The position numbers and the translations under genes are program-made. A DNA stretch of 7,438 nucleotides from an uncultured Muribaculaceae bacterium (GTDB lineage Bacteria > Bacillota_I > Bacilli_A > RF39 > UBA660), in the NCBI GenBank assembly GCA_964372175.1, contig CAYJPP010000025.1, positions 1-7,438 of the forward strand, in the 5' to 3' direction. Numbering within the stretch: the first letter of the stretch is position 1; each line of letters opens with the position of its first letter. Positions 1-7,438 of this stretch are shown in pieces. Under the pieces are notes generated by a model. That model worked only from the letters and a program-made list of their open reading frames with translations. It searched no databases and was not told the DNA's origin.

Positions 1-11
1 CCACCTCCTTT
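1..11 (-). promoter_or_regulatory. Shine-Dalgarno of a minus-strand gene that starts beyond the left edge of the window
   Basis: The reverse complement of 1-18 reads TTTTTTTAAAGGAGGTGG, a near-perfect Gram-positive RBS at the window edge. It lies ~100 nt downstream of the kinase stop on the same strand. The start codon itself is outside the window. Confidence 0.4.
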
Positions 12-111
12 AAAAAAATATTCTATATAAACTTCAATTAAATCTTTTCTTTTTTTCGTTTCTTATAACATCCTCTTCCTTTCTATAACTAGTATATAAT
101 AATAACCTTAA

Positions 112-1341
112 TCAAATCTTAAATTTAATTACAAATTTTGTTTTTTTATTTATCTCACTAACTACGCTAATTTCTCCATTCAATTTATTTACAATACTCT
201 TAGCTATAAATAATCCTAATCCATAACTGTTATTGCTTCTTGATTTATCACTTTTATAAAACCTATCAAATATATAAGGTAAATCATTAGGAGCTATTCC
301 TTGACCACTATTTTCTACCTCAATATATACATTTTTTTTAACTTCATAAACTTTAATCGTAATATTTCCTTTTTCTTTATTATATTTTATAGCATTATCA
401 AGCAATATTTTAATAACTTGTTCTATTTTGTTTTCATCAGTTTGAATTATAACACAGTCATCAATATTAGTTTTAAGTTTGATATTGTTTTCAAAAATCA
501 TTGCTTCAAAAGATAAGCATATATTTCTAATAACTTCCGATAAGTTAACAGAAGTAATATTATATTTATCTTCTTCTGCTTTTGCTGATATTAACAACTC
601 ATTAATTAATTTGTTCATTCCAGATGTTTGATACTTAATATAATCTAACCATTTCGATTGATTCTTAACACAATCATCTCCATTTAATCTTATTGCATCA
701 ATATTAGCATTTATAATTGTTAAAGGCGTCTTCAACTCATGAGTAGCATCTGCAACAAATTGTTTTTGCTTTTTCCATATTGTTTCAACAGGTTTTATTG
801 ATTTATTAGCAAAGTATAAACTGATAAAATAAATAACTATCATCACTACTATACCAACTGTTATTAACATGAATAAAAGAGTGCTTAACACTTGATTACT
901 ACTTGTTATATCTATAAAATTAATTTTATAATATGAATCACCTATAAGATTTTGTTCAGTATCTCTTGGTAAGACAGAAATCTGATACATCCATTCCTTT
1001 TCATCCAGTTCAATTATTCCATTATGATTATCTAAATTAACAACTATTTCAAAATACTCATCATCAACTATATCTAAGCTTGATAATATTTTTGTTAAAT
1101 TAAAGTTTTCATCAGTTAATAACGAAAAGGACGATATATCATTATTAATTATCTCTTTTTCTTGATAAGGATTTCTAATATTTGTGAAATTTATTAGTTG
1201 ATGTCTATTAACTCTTTCTAAATTATCATTGTCAATAAAATGTGCTGTTAAAAAATATATTCCGGTAAAAGAAATCATCATAACAACAGAGATTATTATT
1301 AAATTAATAATTAATAGTTTTCTTTTTAAATCTTTAATCAT
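112..1341 (-). CDS. Membrane-bound sensor histidine kinase (HisKA + HATPase_c)
   Basis: 409-aa ORF. Two hydrophobic TM segments (aa ~9-31 and ~152-177) flank a ~120-aa extracytoplasmic loop. Motifs: H-box ADATHELKTPLT (His201, codon 739-741), N-box LLDNAIKYN, G1 VENSGQGI, F-box IFDRFY, G2 GLGLFIAKSIV. Its ATG (1339-1341) overlaps the stop of the upstream regulator (ATGATTAA, 8-nt overlap). Confidence 0.95.
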   Translation of the reverse strand: MIKDLKRKLLIINLIIISVVMMISFTGIYFLTAHFIDNDNLERVNRHQLINFTNIRNPYQEKEIINNDISSFSLLTDENFNLTKILSSLDIVDDEYFEIVVNLDNHNGIIELDEKEWMYQISVLPRDTEQNLIGDSYYKINFIDITSSNQVLSTLLFMLITVGIVVMIVIYFISLYFANKSIKPVETIWKKQKQFVADATHELKTPLTIINANIDAIRLNGDDCVKNQSKWLDYIKYQTSGMNKLINELLISAKAEEDKYNITSVNLSEVIRNICLSFEAMIFENNIKLKTNIDDCVIIQTDENKIEQVIKILLDNAIKYNKEKGNITIKVYEVKKNVYIEVENSGQGIAPNDLPYIFDRFYKSDKSRSNNSYGLGLFIAKSIVNKLNGEISVVSEINKKTKFVIKFKI

Positions 1342-2014
1342 TTTTTTCCTCTATTATTTTATAACCAATTCCACGCACTGTTTTTATAACAACACCTGTA
1401 GCTAAACTTTCTAATTTTTTCCTTAAAAATGAAATATAAACTTCAACATTGTTATCAACTACAATTTGTTCAATGTTCCAAAGTTTATTAATCATAACTT
1501 CTTTTGCAACAATAGTTTCTGGTTTTTTTAAAAACATTTCTAATAACTGAGTTTCCTTCAATGTCAACGAATAACTCTTATCTTCACAACTAAGTATCAA
1601 ATTATCAAGATTTAATTCTAAATTACTATATTTCAAAACATTTGTAACAATCTCACTACTTCTTCTACTTAAAGTCTTAACTCTCGCTAATAATTCTTCG
1701 CTTTCAAAAGGCTTAGTCAAATAATCATCTGCGCCCATATCAAACCCAGTTAATTTGTCTTCAAGTTCTATTTTAGCGGTCAACATAATTACTGGTGTAT
1801 TAATTTTTTCTTCTCTTAACCTTCTCAATATATTAAAACCATCCATACTAGGCAACATAACATCTAAAACAATTACATCATAACTATTAGTTAATCCATA
1901 TTCTAATCCTTCCAAGCCATCAAAAACTATATCTATATTAATTTTATTTTTTTTAAATATGTGTTCTACTGCATAAGCCATATACTTTTGATCTTCTACT
2001 AATAATACTTTCAT
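1334..2014 (-). CDS. OmpR/PhoB-family two-component response regulator (receiver + winged-helix DNA-binding domain)
   Basis: 226-aa ORF. Receiver signature: E8-D9 acidic pocket, phospho-acceptor D51 in VIVLDVMLP, T79, and K101 in LTKPF. The C-terminal trans_reg_C-like region ends in TVRGIGYKI. RBS GGGAGGT (2019-2025, minus) lies just upstream of the ATG. Confidence 0.95.
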   Translation of the reverse strand: MKVLLVEDQKYMAYAVEHIFKKNKINIDIVFDGLEGLEYGLTNSYDVIVLDVMLPSMDGFNILRRLREEKINTPVIMLTAKIELEDKLTGFDMGADDYLTKPFESEELLARVKTLSRRSSEIVTNVLKYSNLELNLDNLILSCEDKSYSLTLKETQLLEMFLKKPETIVAKEVMINKLWNIEQIVVDNNVEVYISFLRKKLESLATGVVIKTVRGIGYKIIEEKND

Positions 2015-2025
2015 ACTACCTCCCT

Positions 2026-2041
2026 GCTATAAATTATAGCA
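2026..2041 (-). promoter_or_regulatory. Candidate extended -10 promoter (TGcTATAAT) for the regulator/kinase pair, embedded in a 15-bp palindrome
   Basis: The minus strand reads ATGCTATAATTTATAGCAGGGAGG. TATAAT is plus 2033-2038 and the TG lies within plus 2039-2041. No good -35 is present. GCTATAA-a-TTATAGC (2026-2040) is a perfect 7+7 inverted repeat covering the -10. Confidence 0.4.
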
Positions 2042-2060
2042 TCCTTTTCTTAAACATATC

Positions 2061-2303
2061 TTAAATATTATAAATTATAAAAATATAAACAATTATTAAT
2101 ATAGGAAATAATAAAAAAGTTATTTTTTTTGTTTTATGTCTAAATAATAACATTCCTAAAAAAATTCCAAAGCATCCACCTATTAAACCTAAGATATAAA
2201 ATGTTTTTTCAGAAACCCTTCTTTTCTTTTTTATTGCAAATCTCTTATCTAAATACATTAAAGTAATTGTTATTAAGTTTATTATCATTAAATATAAATA
2301 CAT
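2061..2303 (-). CDS. Small DUF1294-like membrane protein
   Basis: The ORF track gives 2061..2312 (GTG start). An ATG at 2301-2303 is preceded by GAGGTG (plus 2310-2315) at 6-nt spacing, so I prefer the 80-aa form MYLYLMII.... The core DKRFAIKKKRRVSEKTFYILGLIGGCFGIFLGMLLFRHKTKK matches my recollection of the DUF1294 signature (DK..A....R.PE..L..L...GG..G......FRHKT.K). Two to three TM helices. Confidence 0.8.
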   Translation of the reverse strand: MYLYLMIINLITITLMYLDKRFAIKKKRRVSEKTFYILGLIGGCFGIFLGMLLFRHKTKKITFLLFPILIIVYIFIIYNI

Positions 2304-2320
2304 ATTAATCACCTCATATT

Positions 2321-2350
2321 AGTATATATTTTTTTTGCCAATAAATCAAT
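2321..2350 (-). promoter_or_regulatory. Candidate SigA-type promoter for the DUF1294 gene
   Basis: The minus strand shows TTGATT (plus 2345-2350), an 18-nt spacer, then TATACT (plus 2321-2326), just upstream of the RBS. The match is moderate only. Confidence 0.3.
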
Positions 2351-2360
2351 TTTCACAAAT

Positions 2361-2389
2361 TTGACACATTTTTAATTCTGGGATACAAT
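2361..2389 (+). promoter_or_regulatory. SigA-type promoter of the lipoprotein gene
   Basis: TTGACA (2361-2366), exactly 17 nt of spacer, then TACAAT (2384-2389). It is followed by RBS GGAGG (2420-2424) 8 nt before the ATG at 2433. Confidence 0.7.
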
Positions 2390-2432
2390 ATAATTAGTTG
2401 AGAATTCAACGTTGTGAGAGGAGGTGTGAAGT

Positions 2433-2852
2433 ATGAATGGTTTAAAAATTGCAATCATCTCTGTTACTATCTTATTAATCACAACTGGGTGTTTTTCTAA
2501 AACATTAGAGTGTACAATGAATGATGATGATTTCGGTAATCAAACTATGGAGTTAAAGTATGATTCATCAGGAGAAAACTTAGAAACTTTTGAAATGACA
2601 CTCGAAGAAGAATTTGATAGCGAAGATGAAGCAAATGAGGCAGTTAATGAAGGTATTTGTAGTATGATAACAGGTGAATCAGTAACTGGTGTTGTATGTG
2701 AAGCAGAATCAAAAGGTAAATCTGTTGTTATGACTGTTACTTATGATGTAAGTGAATTAAGTGATGAAATGATAAAGGAATTAGAACTTGAAGGCATGAC
2801 TTATGATAACGCTAAATCAGAAGCAGAAAAAGATGGATATACATGTAACTAA
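2433..2852 (+). CDS. Small secreted acidic lipoprotein of unknown function
   Basis: 139-aa ORF with a strong RBS. N-terminus MNGLKIAIISVTILLITTG|C has a charged n-region, a hydrophobic core and a lipobox-like TTGC (Cys20). The mature part is very D/E-rich, with four further Cys (C27, C76, C89, C138). The ending DGYTCN recalls small clostridial YehR/DUF1307-like lipoproteins, but this is from memory only. Confidence 0.85.
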   Translation: MNGLKIAIISVTILLITTGCFSKTLECTMNDDDFGNQTMELKYDSSGENLETFEMTLEEEFDSEDEANEAVNEGICSMITGESVTGVVCEAESKGKSVVMTVTYDVSELSDEMIKELELEGMTYDNAKSEAEKDGYTCN

Positions 2853-2876
2853 AAAGCAATTATTTTGCTTTTTTTT
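2852..2876 (+). terminator. Rho-independent terminator of the lipoprotein gene
   Basis: AAAAGCAA (2852-2859), loop TTATT, TTGCTTTT (2865-2872), running into a T-tract to 2876, immediately after the TAA stop. The stem is AT-rich (2 GC pairs), as expected in this genome. Confidence 0.6.
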
Positions 2877-3029
2877 AACTTTTTAGAGTCTGTAAAAAGA
2901 GAGTGTAAAAATAACCTAATAGGCTTTTCGTAAGATTAGCATAATAAGTTATTTTTCTATAAAAAAGATGTGTCACGTTTTGTTTGCTTTTGCAAATGAA
3001 AGTGGCGATAATCTTTTTTCTTTTTATGA

Positions 3030-3076
3030 AATAAAAAGGGCAACAATATCATTAATTCAATTTATAATATTGTTGC
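3030..3076 (-). terminator. Perfect 10-bp inverted repeat, a possible minus-strand intrinsic terminator for the three-gene cassette or for an ncRNA
   Basis: GCAACAATAT (3040-3049) and ATATTGTTGC (3067-3076) are exact complements with a 17-nt loop. On the minus strand the hairpin is followed by CCTTTTTATTT (plus 3030-3039). On the plus strand no T-tract follows. Confidence 0.45.
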
Positions 3077-3145
3077 TTAAATGGGTTTCAAAAGGGTCAT
3101 CCCTTTGCACAATTATAAGTTAGCTTTAGCCGACTTAGTAGTGTG

Positions 3146-3193
3146 TTACTAACTCGACGAAAAGAGTTAGTTATTCCAAACGCCGTTAGTTAT
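3146..3193. repeat. Hairpin plus 9-bp direct repeat in the ORF-free spacer
   Basis: ACTAACTC (3148-3155) pairs with GAGTTAGT (3164-3171) around loop GACGAAAA. GTTAGTTAT occurs twice (3166-3174 and 3185-3193). A further small hairpin, AAAGGG-TCAT-CCCTTT, is at 3091-3106. Function unknown. Confidence 0.5.
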
Positions 3194-3375
3194 GAAATTT
3201 CTTTTGGCTTTTGTTTTTTTGATGTGTTATTTTTTGTATTTAACTAAATCAGATAAATCACAGCCAACCACATGAAGAAATCTTTCTTTATATTTGCAAA
3301 TTCGATTATTTTTTGTGTAAATATTTACTTCTTAAAAAAATTAGTTGTATTTTTGCCATAACTTTTTTGTTTCGT

Positions 3376-4914
3376 TTATTTCATTCTTCTGTGATTATCT
3401 TTTTGTTCAGTTTCATAACATAATTTTCTTAATTGATCATCAGTTATGTGAATAACTTTTCCACCAACTGGATTTATCTTCTTACCACCAAATACAATCC
3501 AAATTGCATTCACAGGAGTATTTGGCATTGGAGCTTCACCATCAGTAAATATAATTTTATTTTCTACTCTTTTCGTAAAAGCATTCACAGCAGCATTAAA
3601 GTTGGTTCCTCCACCACCACGATATTCTATGTTATCAATATCATCTAAAGTTCTTACTTCATTCCAGCCATAAAATCTAGTATCAAAACATCCTACTTTG
3701 ACACTTGAAGTTTGAAAAATATTTTTACATTCACGAAGAAAGTTTTTGAGCAAGTTTTCGTGTATTGATCCACTTGTATCTAATAATATCTCTGTTTCTG
3801 GAATAGGATAAGTTTCAAGATTCGGTGTTACAACACCATTATCTATTTCAGCATTAGCAAAAGACCAATCAACATCCATACTTACTGCTTCTCTAAGCCA
3901 TAATCGCCAATCTATTAAGGGCTTACTTATTCCTATATCCTTTATTTCGCGTTTTTCAGAATTAGTTGTACTTCCAGCTACCATAGATTCTCTAGATAAG
4001 GCATCAAGTAATTCTTGTAATTGTTCTTTTCTTGTTTGCTCATTTTTTTTGAATGCTTTTTTTTCACCCATTTCAAATAGTTTTTCTTGTGTTTCTTTTA
4101 ACTTCTCATCAAAAATTTCTTCTTGTGTTTTTGAATTTTGATTTTGATTTTCTTTTTCATCTTCTTTATCAAAACTTTCAGTTTCCTTATATCGTTTAAC
4201 AGCATGCTCCCACATACTATGAGTATCATGTCCTACATCTTCATTATTTTTTTCTTGACCACTATCATTCACACTTCCACTGCTAGAATCATGTTGTTCT
4301 TTTTTTTGTTCTGTGTCGCTAATTTGTGCAGAACTATTAGAAGATTGCTCTTTTTGATCAGTTTGCTCATCACTTTGTGATTGACTATCTTTTGATTCTT
4401 GATTTTGATTTCCTTGTGATTGTTCTTGATTTTGTTCTGAACTATAACCACTTTGTTGTCTAGAAGATTGACTTTGTTGACCATTTTCTTGTTTTGGCTG
4501 TTGTTCTTTTTCTTCTCGTAATAACTTTTCATACAATCTTTCGGCGTCATAATTTAGTGCGTCTTCAATATCCACACCACCCTCAACTAGAGGTAATCCA
4601 TCTTTTTTCAGAAATTGATTTATAACCGCGTCAGTTGCAATATTCCAAAGCCTTGAATCTTTACCCTCACTACGAAGAATATGATTAAAAGCTATATGGC
4701 ATATTTCATGAGCAAAAATAAATGATTGTTCATCACTCGATAATTTACTCAAAAATTCAGGATCATAATATACTGTTTTACCATCTGTTCCAGCAGTTCC
4801 CAAACCCTTTACTTCTTTCAATCTTAAACTTGCCACTGCACTACCAAAAAAAGGATATTTTATTAGCATTTTTCGTTTTATATCATCAATATTAAATGAA
4901 TCTATATATTCCAT
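3376..4914 (-). CDS. Zincin metallopeptidase + VWA (MIDAS) fusion protein with DUF2201-type architecture and a long low-complexity insert
   Basis: 512-aa ORF. N-terminal HEICH (aa 69-73, nt 4696-4710) is followed by NIATDAVIN and, after the insert, GHDTHSMW. The C-terminal VWA fold has an intact MIDAS: ILLDTSGS (D379-S383, nt 3766-3780), GGGGT (aa 433-437) and FTDGE (aa 456-460). RBS AGGTGA overlaps the TAG stop of the upstream gene (8-nt gap). Confidence 0.85.
   Translation of the reverse strand: MEYIDSFNIDDIKRKMLIKYPFFGSAVASLRLKEVKGLGTAGTDGKTVYYDPEFLSKLSSDEQSFIFAHEICHIAFNHILRSEGKDSRLWNIATDAVINQFLKKDGLPLVEGGVDIEDALNYDAERLYEKLLREEKEQQPKQENGQQSQSSRQQSGYSSEQNQEQSQGNQNQESKDSQSQSDEQTDQKEQSSNSSAQISDTEQKKEQHDSSSGSVNDSGQEKNNEDVGHDTHSMWEHAVKRYKETESFDKEDEKENQNQNSKTQEEIFDEKLKETQEKLFEMGEKKAFKKNEQTRKEQLQELLDALSRESMVAGSTTNSEKREIKDIGISKPLIDWRLWLREAVSMDVDWSFANAEIDNGVVTPNLETYPIPETEILLDTSGSIHENLLKNFLRECKNIFQTSSVKVGCFDTRFYGWNEVRTLDDIDNIEYRGGGGTNFNAAVNAFTKRVENKIIFTDGEAPMPNTPVNAIWIVFGGKKINPVGGKVIHITDDQLRKLCYETEQKDNHRRMK
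3957..4515 (-). repeat. Low-complexity Q/S/E/N/K-rich coding tract inside the peptidase-VWA gene
   Basis: aa ~134-320. The first part is EEKEQQPKQENGQQSQSSRQQSGYSSEQNQEQSQGNQNQESKDSQSQSDEQTDQKEQ.... The second part is K/E-rich and heptad-like (KLKETQEKLFEMGEKKAFKKNEQTRKEQLQELLDAL). The DNA shows reiterated TTGATTTTGATT-type short motifs and three A8 runs in the coding sense. Both extra ORFs of the track (4138-4380 +, 4269-4550 -) fall in this tract. Confidence 0.8.
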
Positions 4915-4922
4915 AGTTTCAC

Positions 4923-5324
4923 CTAAATATGAGCCACTAAAGAATAAATCTCTGGTGATATTTTATTTTTATCAACTTTATCACAAGTAATAACAATCGC
5001 ACAATTTTTAGGTAGTTCAAATGTACTTATCTTGCGGTATTTTAATATCTCACAAAATTTCACTTGATCATCAGCCCCAATATTAGTTAAATTATCAATT
5101 ACTAATATATTAACATTCAAATCCTTTTTAATCATCAATTCTTCATACCATTTTGGAGGCATGAAATCTACACCCTCATAGTGTCCGTTTAAAAGTTCGA
5201 CTGCGCAATTAGATGGTATGATCACTGAATTAGGAAGATTTTGCCCAGTTATTCCTTCAACTAAAATAGGAGAGATATTTGTTTTGATGTAAGTATTCAT
5301 CATATTTATTTTTTCTTGATTCAT
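4923..5324 (-). CDS. Small degenerate (P-loop-less) AAA+ core paralogue of the upstream ATPase
   Basis: 133-aa ORF. Its ATG overlaps the ATPase stop (ATGA at 5321-5324), and RBS GGTGG lies 9 nt upstream. It aligns by eye with aa ~315-460 of the 671-aa protein: FMPPKWYEEL with DVPPTWYKKL, ILVIDNLTN with IIFFDEITN, ELPKNCAIVITC with KLPDNARVVAAG, PEIYSLVAHI with EPLFNRFAHVYI. Confidence 0.8.
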   Translation of the reverse strand: MNQEKINMMNTYIKTNISPILVEGITGQNLPNSVIIPSNCAVELLNGHYEGVDFMPPKWYEELMIKKDLNVNILVIDNLTNIGADDQVKFCEILKYRKISTFELPKNCAIVITCDKVDKNKISPEIYSLVAHI

Positions 5325-7336
5325 CGTTTCATCCCACCTTTATAGTCATTTATGTAAAAAGGAAGATCATCGTCATCCATTATTCGATACCCATCACTAT
5401 TCGACTGATCTGCATAAGCTGTTGTATTCCCATCTTTTAAGCGAATTTCTGCTACTTTTTCAATTCTCTTATCATCACCATGTGTCCATAAAGAATCAAA
5501 TATTGTAACTAACTCTGGTTCTAATCTAGAAACAAATTCTCGGACTTTTTCTACATTTTCATCATCTGCATAAGATAAACCCACTGTTGTTGCCCATTTT
5601 TCTGATATATCCATATATAAATCAGAATCATTATATTTATCTGCAATAACATCTTCTAATGTAATTACTTTTTGATTACAAAAATGTACGAAATCTCTTG
5701 TTAAATCATCACCAATTAATGCTCGCAGCATTTCTGGTTGACGAGTTCTATAAAGCATTTTAGAAGCCATTTCCCACTTTCTAGGATCAGCATTAGGCCT
5801 TTTACCAGTATATTGTGAACGAAGTGCTTGATCCCCTTTAAACGCAATATATGCGTATATTGATGGATGAATCTTGCGTTCTTGTTTTTGCTCTTCAAAA
5901 TCTAACTTTTCAACTTTTTTATCAGCTGTCATGGCCCACTTAAGCCAATCTTCAACTTTTGTATTTATATAAACATGAGCAAATCTATTAAATAATGGCT
6001 CTGCAAGTTGATTAGCTGCTAATGAATCATTATAGTCATTTCCTGCTGCTACAACTCTTGCGTTGTCTGGAAGTTTCCAAATCCCATTTACTTCTCTATC
6101 TAAAACAATATTGTACGCCATGCCTTGAATTGCGGGAAGTGCATTTGTAATTTCATCAAAGAAAATAATATTTATTTTATCTGGATTTGCTTCACATTTT
6201 GCTTTTAATTTTTTATACCAGGTTGGTGGAACATCTATCATCTCACCAGTTGCTGGATTATATACACTTTTTCCATTTAATGAATCAGGAGTTGCATTTC
6301 TTAGATAAATTATTTCTAAGTCTGGATCAAGTTGTTTAACCCTTGCACTTTTCCCCTCACTTGACTGACCGTGTAGGAAAACCGCTACACCAGATTCTAC
6401 TGTTCCTCTAATAATATCTTCTTCACTAACACCCTTAAAATCAAAATTATAAGGATTCTTTTTTCTAGCAGTTTCTTGGATTTCTATTCCTTGTTCTGCA
6501 ACTTGTGCTAAAGTTCTAGTTGTTTTTATATCTTTTGAAAAATGATTATCCATAAATCTTTTTATTTCAGTATTTTTAAAATCACCATCATATCTTCCAG
6601 GTTGATTAAATCGCACACCTGCAAATATTCCCCTTTTAGAAACTAACATTTTTGATTGTTCATCAACTAACCATTTAATCGGTTGTACTTCAATCCAAAC
6701 AGTATCGCCAATACTTACCGAAACACCATTAGCAATAGTTGTAGGATTGTTGCATAATGTTTTCACTTCTACGCGAACATATCTTTTTCCATTATATTCA
6801 TATTCTTGATGTTGTTGTGCACGAAAATCTTTGTCATAAGCATCATAATTTCTTGAATCAGTTGTATATGTTTTGCCAGTAGTTTTTATTCCTCGTGATT
6901 GATATTCACGCTCAAGATTTTCACCAAGTCTTTTATCAACTGCTTGTTGTGGGTATTCGCCATATTGAATTTCGGGAACAACACCTACTCCCCTCACTAT
7001 GTTCGGGGAGATTAAAGAGATGTCAGAGTACAGTGAAGCTGGGCGGGCAGTGGCATTTCGTTTATATGGAGAGAGCCAATTACAAAAACCATGATCTAAG
7101 ACAGCGCGAACACACCCATCACCAGCGGAAGATGACGAAAAATAATATCCGGCTCGATCTTTTAAATCGTTCCCCTCTGATGTATGTTGAGCTTCAAATT
7201 TTACAAATCCGCCTAAAAGAATTGAAAAATCGCTTACTGCCATTCTCATACCATATTTTTTTAATATATCTAATTTTCTATCACCGTATAATTGATCATC
7301 AGTTAAAAAAACAAAATCATTTATTTCTTGTTTCAT
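5321..7336 (-). CDS. MoxR/AAA_5-like AAA+ ATPase with a large N-terminal DUF6273-like domain and a helical C-terminal extension
   Basis: 671-aa ORF. RBS AGGTGAGGA (plus 7341-7349) lies 4 nt before the ATG. Walker A is GQSSEGKS (aa 323-330, nt 6347-6370). Walker B is IIFFDE (aa 390-395, nt 6152-6169). Sensor-1-like VVAAGN and Arg-containing PLFNRF are present. There is no signal peptide or TM segment. The N-terminal ~270 aa lack ATPase motifs. The C-terminus has an acidic MDDDDLPFY tail. Confidence 0.9.
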   Translation of the reverse strand: MKQEINDFVFLTDDQLYGDRKLDILKKYGMRMAVSDFSILLGGFVKFEAQHTSEGNDLKDRAGYYFSSSSAGDGCVRAVLDHGFCNWLSPYKRNATARPASLYSDISLISPNIVRGVGVVPEIQYGEYPQQAVDKRLGENLEREYQSRGIKTTGKTYTTDSRNYDAYDKDFRAQQHQEYEYNGKRYVRVEVKTLCNNPTTIANGVSVSIGDTVWIEVQPIKWLVDEQSKMLVSKRGIFAGVRFNQPGRYDGDFKNTEIKRFMDNHFSKDIKTTRTLAQVAEQGIEIQETARKKNPYNFDFKGVSEEDIIRGTVESGVAVFLHGQSSEGKSARVKQLDPDLEIIYLRNATPDSLNGKSVYNPATGEMIDVPPTWYKKLKAKCEANPDKINIIFFDEITNALPAIQGMAYNIVLDREVNGIWKLPDNARVVAAGNDYNDSLAANQLAEPLFNRFAHVYINTKVEDWLKWAMTADKKVEKLDFEEQKQERKIHPSIYAYIAFKGDQALRSQYTGKRPNADPRKWEMASKMLYRTRQPEMLRALIGDDLTRDFVHFCNQKVITLEDVIADKYNDSDLYMDISEKWATTVGLSYADDENVEKVREFVSRLEPELVTIFDSLWTHGDDKRIEKVAEIRLKDGNTTAYADQSNSDGYRIMDDDDLPFYINDYKGGMKR

Positions 7337-7340
7337 AAGT

Positions 7341-7366
7341 TCCTCACCTGTAAGTAAATAATACCA
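7341..7366 (-). promoter_or_regulatory. RBS and candidate extended -10 promoter of the three-gene cassette
   Basis: The minus strand reads TATGGTATTATTTACTTACAGGTGAGGAACTTATG. This gives TGgTATTAT (TATTAT = plus 7358-7363, TG = plus 7365-7366) with only a weak -35 (TAGTAA). The predicted leader is very short, so the true promoter may lie further upstream, outside the window. Confidence 0.35.
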
Positions 7367-7438
7367 TAAATAGCGTATTTTTACTAGTGTTTCTGCTTAT
7401 TTTCATACTTTTTTCATTTTATTTAAACTTACTTTTGA

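Follow-up and report, generated by a model that had tools for sequence, protein, structure and literature searches.

A MoxR-type ATPase, dead AAA+ paralogue and zincin-VWA cassette of gut Bacilli, with an ATPase head that is targeted by a diversity-generating retroelement in related loci

Diversity-generating retroelements (DGRs) linked to MoxR-vWA systems have been proposed as antigen sensors, following the logic of a variable sensor, an ATPase threshold and a proteolytic output (PMC7159879, PMC10907252). Among them are the VMAP ternary systems, known from cyanobacteria and gammaproteobacteria (Kaur et al. 2020, PMC7159879; Dore et al. 2024, PMC10907252). Here we describe a three-gene cassette found in a 7,438-nucleotide stretch of DNA from an uncultured bacterium (contig CAYJPP010000025.1 of assembly GCA_964372175.1, positions 1 to 7,438; hereafter the window). 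Gene 1 codes for an ATPase with an N-terminal head, gene 2 for a small AAA+ paralogue without a P-loop, and gene 3 for a zincin-like peptidase joined to a von Willebrand factor A (VWA) domain. In related loci from other genomes, the head of the ATPase is the target of a DGR. As in the VMAP ternary systems, a MoxR-type ATPase, a VWA protein and a peptidase occur together with a DGR, consisting of Avd, a template repeat (TR) and a reverse transcriptase (RT), that hypermutates a ligand-binding domain, of lectin-like or, here, DUF6273-like type, in a cytoplasmic NTPase system. In the ternary systems, however, the variable FGS/CLec domain is found at the C-terminus of the vWA protein or in a separate target, whereas here a DUF6273-like domain is fused to the N-terminus of the ATPase; the peptidase is a trypsin- or caspase-like VMAP rather than a zincin fused to VWA (DUF2201); the third gene, going by the published description, is VMAP rather than a dead AAA+ core; and the hosts are multicellular rather than unicellular gut Bacilli with reduced genomes.

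Two components of the cassette, the ATPase family (phrog_1297) and the zincin-VWA family (phrog_1314; DUF2201_N and DUF2201 domains), are also present as a pair in bacteriophages. Gp24 and gp25 of phage N4 are encoded by core genes of N4-like phages, gp24 having no assigned function and gp25 being described only as a vWFA-domain protein (PMC4193335), and the jumbo-phage pair has been described as a MoxR and (metallopeptidase-vWA) chaperone pair proposed for virion assembly (PMC7824862). The phage genes are adjacent and on the same strand, as in the cassette, with a small open reading frame (ORF) between them in Pseudomonas phage Ab09. They share 25–32% identity with the cassette proteins, and the phage ATPases, at approximately 350 amino acids, lack the variable N-terminal region of 290 residues; they are found in middle-gene or replication regions without a DGR, whereas the cassette is almost absent from viral contigs. 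The head also resembles the tentaclins, gut-phage DGR targets with a DUF6273 domain (Baykov et al. 2023, PMC10743442; PMC11792537). DUF6273 is a published DGR target domain, and its N-terminal position, the variable repeat (VR) at its C-terminal end, the TR between Avd and RT, and the gut ecosystem are all common to tentaclins and the cassette loci. In tentaclins the domain is followed by immunoglobulin-like domains and the protein is read as a virion receptor-binding protein, whereas in gene 1 it is followed by a beta domain and an AAA+ ATPase in a protein of cytoplasmic type.

The best structural matches of the ATPase are to the NorQ-NorD type of chaperone, which includes CbbQ-CbbO and RavA-ViaA, among them NorQ hexamers bound to the NorD VWA; the partner here is likewise a VWA protein bearing a metal ion-dependent adhesion site (MIDAS). 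The cassette differs in having neither a sequence-level PDB match nor a linked client gene, and in adding a variable head, a dead paralogue and a peptidase domain. The nearest precedent is that of Wu et al., who reported Midasin-like AAA motifs in some DGR targets of candidate phyla, as well as a few N-terminal VRs. It was thus already known that a DGR can be joined to a MoxR-vWA system and that DUF6273 can be a DGR target. In the published literature that we searched, we did not find a variable domain fused to the ATPase, a DUF2201 zincin-VWA partner, a dead AAA+ third gene, or occurrence in unicellular gut Bacilli with reduced genomes.

The related loci used throughout are the best 76 of 239 matches to full-length gene 1, obtained by scanning one genome per species, most of them metagenome-assembled genomes (MAGs); genes in them were defined by our own simple ORF calls. 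Clustering of approximately 1000 proteins encoded around the cassette revealed one dominant neighbour family, whose 60 members, from 32 loci, are all encoded immediately 5' of gene 1 and on its strand, and which holds an RT and an Avd-like protein; no other conserved neighbour was found in this analysis. The RT is approximately 350 amino acids in length, matches RVT_1 (8e-16) and possesses the motifs YVRYMDDMIL and LPLGNQSSQ, [I/L]GxxxSQ being the signature of DGR RTs. The Avd-like protein (approximately 195 amino acids) is encoded 5' of the TR and matches bAvd with an E-value of 1e-4 and 23.1 bits, which is under the 40-bit gathering score. An adjacent RT was present in 26 of the 59 loci having at least 2.2 kb of upstream sequence, 20 of these being full length, and the Avd-like gene was present in 21.

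Between Avd and RT lies a repeat which matches gene 1 at about nucleotides 205–305, defining a VR of approximately 80–100 nt (about residues 70–105). TR/VR pairs were recovered from 18 loci, and the two copies differ almost exclusively at positions where the TR has adenine. Pooling 17 scored pairs, which had passed a filter (at least 70 nt, more than 75% identity and at least 60% of mismatches at A) that selects for the reported pattern, 186 of 219 mismatches fall at TR adenines, whereas adenine accounts for 31% of the bases in the TR (binomial p 3e-61). The filter bias is mitigated in that the repeat was first found irrespective of base identity, and in that it is always located between Avd and RT in these loci. 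In individual loci the mismatches at A amount to 10 of 10 (L021), 14 of 14 (L064) and 12 of 12 (L023 and L035). Since adenine-specific mismatches between TR and VR are the defining signature of DGRs, we assign the element as such: related loci carry a DGR that targets the N-terminal head of the gene 1 ATPase. The sequence-only reading, which had been made from the window by itself, treated the cassette as self-contained; related genomes show a four-part unit of Avd, TR, RT and then the three genes.

The TR adenines are mostly at codon positions 1 and 2, in AAC- and AAT-rich codons, and permit 11–16 variable codons, equivalent to 10^11–10^13 possible sequences. In-frame TAA or TAG codons were observed in the TRs of 9 of the 17 loci. 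Unmutated copying of such a TR would thus produce a null allele, the full-length protein being encoded by diversified copies alone. In L009, L025 and L041 the VR retains the TR stop, and gene 1 is split near residues 84–99.

The VR lies where gene 1 is most variable: across 81 orthologues the 10-residue block of highest entropy is at residues 81–90 (3.1 bits, versus 0.3–1.0 in the ATPase). Pfam DUF6273 (PF19789) matches 13 of the 81 orthologous N-terminal domains at E<=0.01 (best 3.4e-7); the match in P0065 spans residues 23–97, and those of P0003 and P0065 exceed the gathering cut-off. Gene 1 of the window itself has no match to DUF6273 at E<=1, and its head is best described as a divergent relative. 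Residues 1–270 were modelled with a predicted local distance difference test (pLDDT) score of 91. A profile search of PDB sequences with the N-terminal domain gave nothing relevant, and the beta-rich second subdomain, residues 120–235, has neither a family nor a fold match. In four proteins of about 900 residues (P0003, P0007, P0079 and P0087) the head and beta domain are in tandem duplicate ahead of the ATPase, each copy with a VR-like stretch. The suggestion in the sequence-only reading that the N-terminal domain is a sensor or recognition module gains strong support from its being the DGR target in orthologous loci. The model of the window protein is of low confidence in the linker that follows (pLDDT below 50 at residues 273–290); in P0055 and P0077 this linker contains tandem repeats of a unit of approximately 20 residues (STSVEQTQNLEGKEPVRKQNP).

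Nearly all of the best 76 loci belong to uncultured gut Bacilli, comprising MAGs labelled "Tenericutes" or Mollicutes, Coprobacillus sp. CAG:605, Clostridium sp. CAG:417 and Candidatus Faecisoma; the Bacteroidales label of a few contigs probably reflects binning errors. Many loci have extra tandem copies of gene 1. In 10 of the 11 such loci compared, the ATPase domains of the copies are 96–100% identical (88% in L076), while VR identity between copies is 28–79% in the eight loci with diverged heads. This is one motor with many heads, the pattern expected of a recognition repertoire. Arrays reach five or more gene 1 paralogues, as in L055 (8063–21852), which has repeated gene 2–gene 3 units in the order g1 g1 g2 g3 g1 g1 g2 g3 g1 g1, and in L072 (8530–17992). 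The four near-identical gene 1 copies in L072 may reflect recent amplification or an assembly artefact.

How the window copy relates to these DGRs was judged by alignment. Nucleotides 201–305 of its gene 1 (7136–7032) align with the TR/VR pairs of related loci, and the segment terminates in CCAGCTT, which is the VR type, the TRs reading CCAGATT. The window contains no TR, and the adenine-specific pattern is that of the related loci. The window ends 102 nt 5' of gene 1, and the 11-codon ORF end at its edge is suggestive of the tail of an RT gene. The lineage of the window had a DGR, as the relatives described below indicate. Its closest relative, L081, is 76% identical; DNA identity between the two is 72–73% in the VR and approximately 78% overall, which is uninformative at such a distance. 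In L081 (8824–9946) Avd and the RT survive as a fused remnant directly 5' of gene 1, in which a deletion joins the N-terminal half of the former to the C-terminal 274 residues of the latter; the TR was lost with this deletion. The RT of L005 (8786–9919) is interrupted by a serine recombinase, an IstB (IS21-type) gene is inserted in L013 (9149–9901), and the RT of L006 is truncated. The DGR has decayed independently, by different routes, in L081, L005 and L013, and the three-gene cassette is intact in each.

Another close relative, L084 (GCA_036646695.1, JAVXLT010000028.1), stops at its position 1 at the base homologous to window position 7438, and in L081 this break point falls within the 3' end of the RT gene. 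Because two independent assemblies stop at the same base, a repeat-induced (short-read) assembly break is suggested. We think decay of the DGR in the lineage of the window is the likelier state of affairs, and, since the DGRs of its nearest relatives are broken, the window copy may hold a frozen specificity. The value of this particular window is lowered by the DGR part lying outside its sequence and having probably decayed in the lineage.

All three genes are on the minus strand, and the coordinates of their features are collected in Table 1. The coupling noted in the sequence-only reading, an ATGA overlap followed by an 8-nt gap, agrees with the ORF calls and junction sequences. The order gene 1–gene 2–gene 3 is kept in approximately 75 loci from other genomes, essentially every locus, with the same junction types, the spacing between genes 2 and 3 being typically 8–11 nt; since both order and junction types recur in this way, the arrangement is not due to chance. 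Signal peptides and membrane helices are absent from all three proteins, the maximum 19-residue Kyte-Doolittle mean being no greater than 1.07, and in the absence of any hydrophobic segment all three are predicted to be cytoplasmic.

Table 1. Coordinates of the cassette and associated features in the window (aa, amino acid residues)
Feature	Position	Strand	Remarks
Upstream ORF, 3' end	7403–7438	(-)	Ends SKVSLNKMKKV and stop; 11 codons, cut by the edge; aligns with the RT stop of L081
Gene 1	5321–7336	(-)	671 aa; DUF6273-like variable head, beta-rich domain, linker, MoxR-type AAA+ ATPase, helical C-terminal region
Head subdomain	7022–7315	(-)	aa 8–105; divergent DUF6273 relative
VR-homologous segment	7031–7138	(-)	aa 67–102; ends CGCCCAGCTT
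Beta-rich second subdomain	6632–6979	(-)	aa 120–235; strands 121–132, 151–160, 173–190 and 212–233 in model
AAA+ alpha/beta core	5957–6439	(-)	aa 300–460; most conserved region of gene 1, mean pairwise identity 0.80
Walker A (GQSSEGKS)	6347–6370	(-)	aa 323–330
Walker B (IIFFDE)	6152–6169	(-)	aa 390–395
Helical C-terminal region of gene 1	5429–5881	(-)	aa 486–636; model helices 491–636; conserved PNADPRKWEMAS motif
ATGA overlap	5321–5324	(-)	Gene 1 stop and gene 2 start; 4-nt or 1-nt overlap in most related loci
Gene 2	4923–5324	(-)	133 aa; degenerate copy of AAA+ core without P-loop
Gene 2/gene 3 junction	4915–4925	(-)	Stop TAG (4923–4925), 8 nt, gene 3 ATG at 4914; AGGTGA overlaps the stop
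Gene 3	3376–4914	(-)	512 aa; zincin-like peptidase domain, long Q/S/E/K-rich linker, VWA domain
PF13203 (DUF2201_N)	4270–4878	(-)	aa 13–215; E-value 4e-37; 128.7 bits versus cut-off 23.2
HExxH (H69-E70-x-x-H73)	4696–4710	(-)	Conserved in 66 orthologues
Low-complexity linker	4015–4512	(-)	approximately aa 135–300; unconserved in the 66-sequence alignment; length varies
MIDAS (D379-T-S-G-S383)	3766–3780	(-)	With GGT and TDG, conserved in 66 orthologues
PF09967 (DUF2201, VWA-like)	3445–3789	(-)	aa 376–490; E-value 3.5e-12; 47.0 bits versus cut-off 26.4

More than 3000 homologues of gene 1 were found by protein search, the full-length orthologues being 625–690 amino acids in length with 54–76% identity. 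Its Walker A and B motifs are intact, as had been read from the sequence, and G323, G328, K329, S330, D394 and E395 are invariant in 39 homologues. The PHROG family phrog_1297 ("ATPase") matches residues 307–627 (2.5e-47). No match to gene 1 was found in Pfam, NCBIfam, PADLOC or PDB sequences, and a profile search of the PDB was also empty. In particular the Pfam AAA_5 family (PF07728), which had been expected, gave no match to the window protein at E<=0.1, and matched homologues only with E-values of 0.018–0.09, under the cut-off. When the AlphaFold2 model of the full-length protein (pLDDT 74.5) was compared with the PDB using Foldseek, the top matches were NorQ and NorQ-NorD VWA complexes (E 1.7e-7 to 1e-5, probability 1.00); the target-normalised template modelling (TM) scores of the NorQ-type matches are 0.38–0.42, and MCM proteins rank next. 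Given the NorQ fold match and PHROG 1297, and no AAA_5 match, the designation "MoxR-like" is based on fold and not on Pfam AAA_5: the ATPase assignment of the sequence-only reading stood, and its anticipated family match was missing. The helical C-terminal region is probably a lid with an extension.

Gene 2 was suspected to be a dead paralogue of the ATPase, and the comparison bears this out. BLASTP aligns it with residues 369–455 of gene 1 (E-value 5e-7), and hhalign places its residues 7–133 on residues 307–455 of gene 1 (94% probability, E-value 1.3e-7). Relative to gene 1 the Walker A position is deleted and the Walker B FFDE is replaced by VIDN. Gene 2 has no match in the Pfam, NCBIfam, PADLOC or PHROG libraries. 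The family is small, with 179 representatives among 1.84 billion clusters searched exhaustively with HMMER, nearly all of which are stand-alone proteins of 120–140 residues.

The product of gene 3 combines an intact HExxH with an intact MIDAS, as proposed, and both expected Pfam domains, DUF2201_N and DUF2201, exceed their cut-offs. It is matched by phrog_1314 (1.3e-68). It thus provides the ATPase with an adjacent VWA partner in the same operon. Intact orthologues span 400 to 611 amino acids. An imperfect internal repeat is present in the linker (4129–4169 and 4390–4430).

By tblastn, the ATPase half of gene 1 was detected in 624 phage records and gene 3 in 556, mainly from N4-like podophages and PA5oct-type jumbo phages. 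The phage homologues are N4 gp24 and gp25, and the ATPases among them lack the first 290 residues of gene 1. In Pseudomonas phage Ab09 an ATPase (356 amino acids), a small ORF (164 amino acids) and a DUF2201 protein (408 amino acids) are encoded in this order near the DNA polymerase gene. The small middle ORF was considered as a relative of gene 2 and rejected, there being no similarity (E-value 0.03 over 25 residues). The DUF2201 zincin-VWA proteins of N4-like phages (H35, H38, H39, H42 and others) are often labelled "HNH endonuclease" in RefSeq after the PHROG name; this looks like a mis-annotation, to which the Pfam domains of gene 3, a member of the same phrog_1314, give no support. The full-length gene 1 family was found in one of 2.9 million viral contigs (IMG/VR), approximately 4 kb beyond prophage tail and lysis genes.

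The surroundings of the cassette were scanned with Pfam and PADLOC, using 140 genes within three positions of it in loci L001–L049. The commonest Pfam families occur only two to three times each, for example integrases, histidine kinases, TsaD, tRNA synthetases, RNase J and ClpB. One locus adjoins rpoB/rpoC, and another adjoins secA, an IS605 TnpB gene, RhuM and a HipA-like gene. The cassette is cellular, patchy in distribution and sometimes multi-copy, and is located outside prophages and obvious defence islands.

We lean, with modest assurance, towards the cassette being the receptor-and-effector part of a DGR locus in small-genome gut Bacilli, that is, a conflict system built from a DGR-diversified sensor-ATPase and a protease. 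Its homologues, NorQ and other MoxR proteins, suggest that gene 1 would form an AAA+ ring with the variable heads exposed. The product of gene 2 would most likely occupy or cap a ring position as a non-catalytic subunit, or bridge to gene 3, and the MIDAS-bearing VWA of gene 3 would dock on the ring as NorD does on NorQ, with the zincin domain tethered through the long flexible linker. Binding of a foreign protein, from a phage or mobile element, to a head might then alter ATPase activity and remodel gene 3 so as to switch on the peptidase, which could cleave invader or host proteins. Every step downstream of mutagenesis is inferred. A more specific form of this proposal is an anticipatory intracellular immune receptor, in which 10^11–10^13 heads and arrays of paralogues share one dead-AAA adaptor and one VWA-tethered zincin protease, and phage protein binding leads to ATP hydrolysis and hence protease activation, with a hint that N4 gp24/gp25 would be the phage-side relative; this we regard as a tentative and rather doubtful refinement.

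Several observations weigh against a conflict system. Ring assembly, docking and protease activation are all drawn by analogy. No TR copy is present within the window; when the TRs of other loci are compared with the window VR, 16 of 35 mismatches are at A, a proportion too low to be informative because TRs differ between lineages. Within the clade of the window the DGR has decayed (TR deletion in L081, recombinase insertion in L005, truncated RT in L006), and the RT-less remainder of the 59 loci with sufficient upstream sequence, about half, has none within 10 kb. Foldseek of the N-terminal domain model against the PDB and BFVD gave nothing at E<0.08, and the C-type lectin fold was not recovered. 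No family of PADLOC-DB 2.0 matches any of the three proteins at E<=0.1, and the 140 neighbours show no consistent enrichment for defence or phage genes, being mostly housekeeping or miscellaneous with scattered PADLOC matches. In addition, lytic N4-like and jumbo phages have the ATPase/VWA pair as a core module, whose role there is presumably in propagation of the phage. The conflict system put forward in the sequence-only reading accordingly keeps the standing of an inference: there is no PADLOC match and no neighbour enrichment, and the nearest characterised ATPase/VWA relatives are the core genes of lytic N4-like phages.

These phage connections raise the alternative that the cassette stems from a phage or other mobile element, of which it would be a domesticated or decaying part, with the ATPase and zincin-VWA protein acting as an assembly chaperone or host-takeover pair, and the DUF6273 head binding a receptor as in tentaclins, all in the service of the element. 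The strong PHROG matches of genes 1 and 3 and their many phage records are consistent with this, as are the Ab09 trio beside the DNA polymerase gene, the place of gp24/gp25 in the N4-like core (PMC4193335), the virion-assembly proposal for the jumbo pair (PMC7824862) and the fact that DUF6273 is typical among phage DGR targets; the RT also matches phrog_1423 (2.8e-106), L083 is situated approximately 4 kb from prophage tail and lysis genes, and insertion sequence, recombinase and integrase genes are found near some loci. We nevertheless consider it quite unlikely. The single viral contig with full-length gene 1 compares with 239 matches among species-representative genomes; among the leading neighbour families none is of phage structural or replication type, the flanks being genes such as rpoB/rpoC, secA, tRNA synthetases, TsaD and RNase J; the phage homologues lack the N-terminal 290 residues, and the middle gene of Ab09 is unlike gene 2. 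Proteins of cytoplasmic type are a misfit for a receptor-binding protein, and over approximately 70 loci the genes are intact with their catalytic motifs conserved. The NorQ and NorQ-NorD fold matches and the many housekeeping genes in the flanks would instead suit a housekeeping maturation factor or activase like NorQ-NorD, CbbQ-CbbO or RavA-ViaA, which inserts a cofactor or remodels a client selected by the N-terminal domain, and the pairing of MoxR with VWA is the rule for such chaperones. This seems very improbable, for DGR hypermutation of a client-binding domain and the divergent heads of paralogues misfit a fixed client, the zincin domain fused to the VWA looks active, the only conserved neighbour is the DGR, and the cassette is patchily distributed, some genomes having more than one copy.

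A conflict or surveillance system could also be directed at something other than phage, such as proteins of plasmids or conjugative elements, bacteriocins, effectors or host (animal) molecules, or could be a self-regulating addiction module, with the same parts but a different trigger and output. In its favour are the hypervariable head and the arrays of paralogues; the data point to phage in no particular way, the carriers found are exclusively host-associated Bacilli with reduced genomes, and HipA-like, RhuM and TnpB genes are present beside one locus. Since the proteins are cytoplasmic, extracellular ligands are unlikely; there is no conserved linked immunity or antitoxin gene, and the published view of DGR-linked MoxR-vWA systems favours the sensing of invaders. 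We judge this explanation unlikely, and return to a DGR-diversified sensor-ATPase with a protease output as the reading that we prefer.

Should the anticipatory-receptor form of this reading be true, unicellular rather than multicellular gut bacteria would possess a compact counterpart of a diversified receptor repertoire. Antigen-sensor proposals have so far come mostly from large multi-gene loci in multicellular cyanobacteria and sulfur bacteria, which are hard to study. The present family compresses the idea into approximately 6.5 kb (Avd, TR, RT, sensor-ATPase, dead paralogue and VWA-protease) with clear point mutants available, and the positions proposed for these in the sequence-only reading (K329, E70 and D379) are correctly numbered. 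Since the family is found in hundreds of species of gut Bacilli with reduced genomes, the proposed tie of such systems to multicellularity is weakened. The family also gives N4 gp24/gp25, encoded in the core of N4-like phages, a counterpart in cells, and shows DUF6273, a domain known from receptor-binding proteins of phages, put to a second use in an intracellular setting. Protein engineers would be interested in a mutable binder that is coupled to an ATPase and a protease.

The G+C content is 30–39% in the cassette and 22–28% in the left flank. Rfam, tRNA and terminator scans of the whole window were empty, including the 520-nt non-coding gap (2853–3375) 3' of gene 3, in which no recognisable terminator for the cassette was found. 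A promoter scan 5' of gene 1 gave no consensus site; an extended -10-like element, TGGTATTAT, kept in three relatives, was seen by eye only. Genes for a two-component pair, a DUF1294 protein and a small lipoprotein-like product are found in the left flank. The pair consists of a histidine kinase (112–1341) and an OmpR-type response regulator (1334–2014), both on the minus strand with an 8-nt overlap and a G+C content of 22–27%; among the 140 scanned neighbours of related loci, three have histidine-kinase domains. The DUF1294 membrane protein (2061–2312, minus strand; Pfam 2.3e-21) is encoded next to a divergently transcribed gene (2433–2852, plus strand) for a 139-amino acid protein with a lipobox-like LITTGC signal. 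A hairpin with a T-run is present immediately 3' of the stop codon of this gene.

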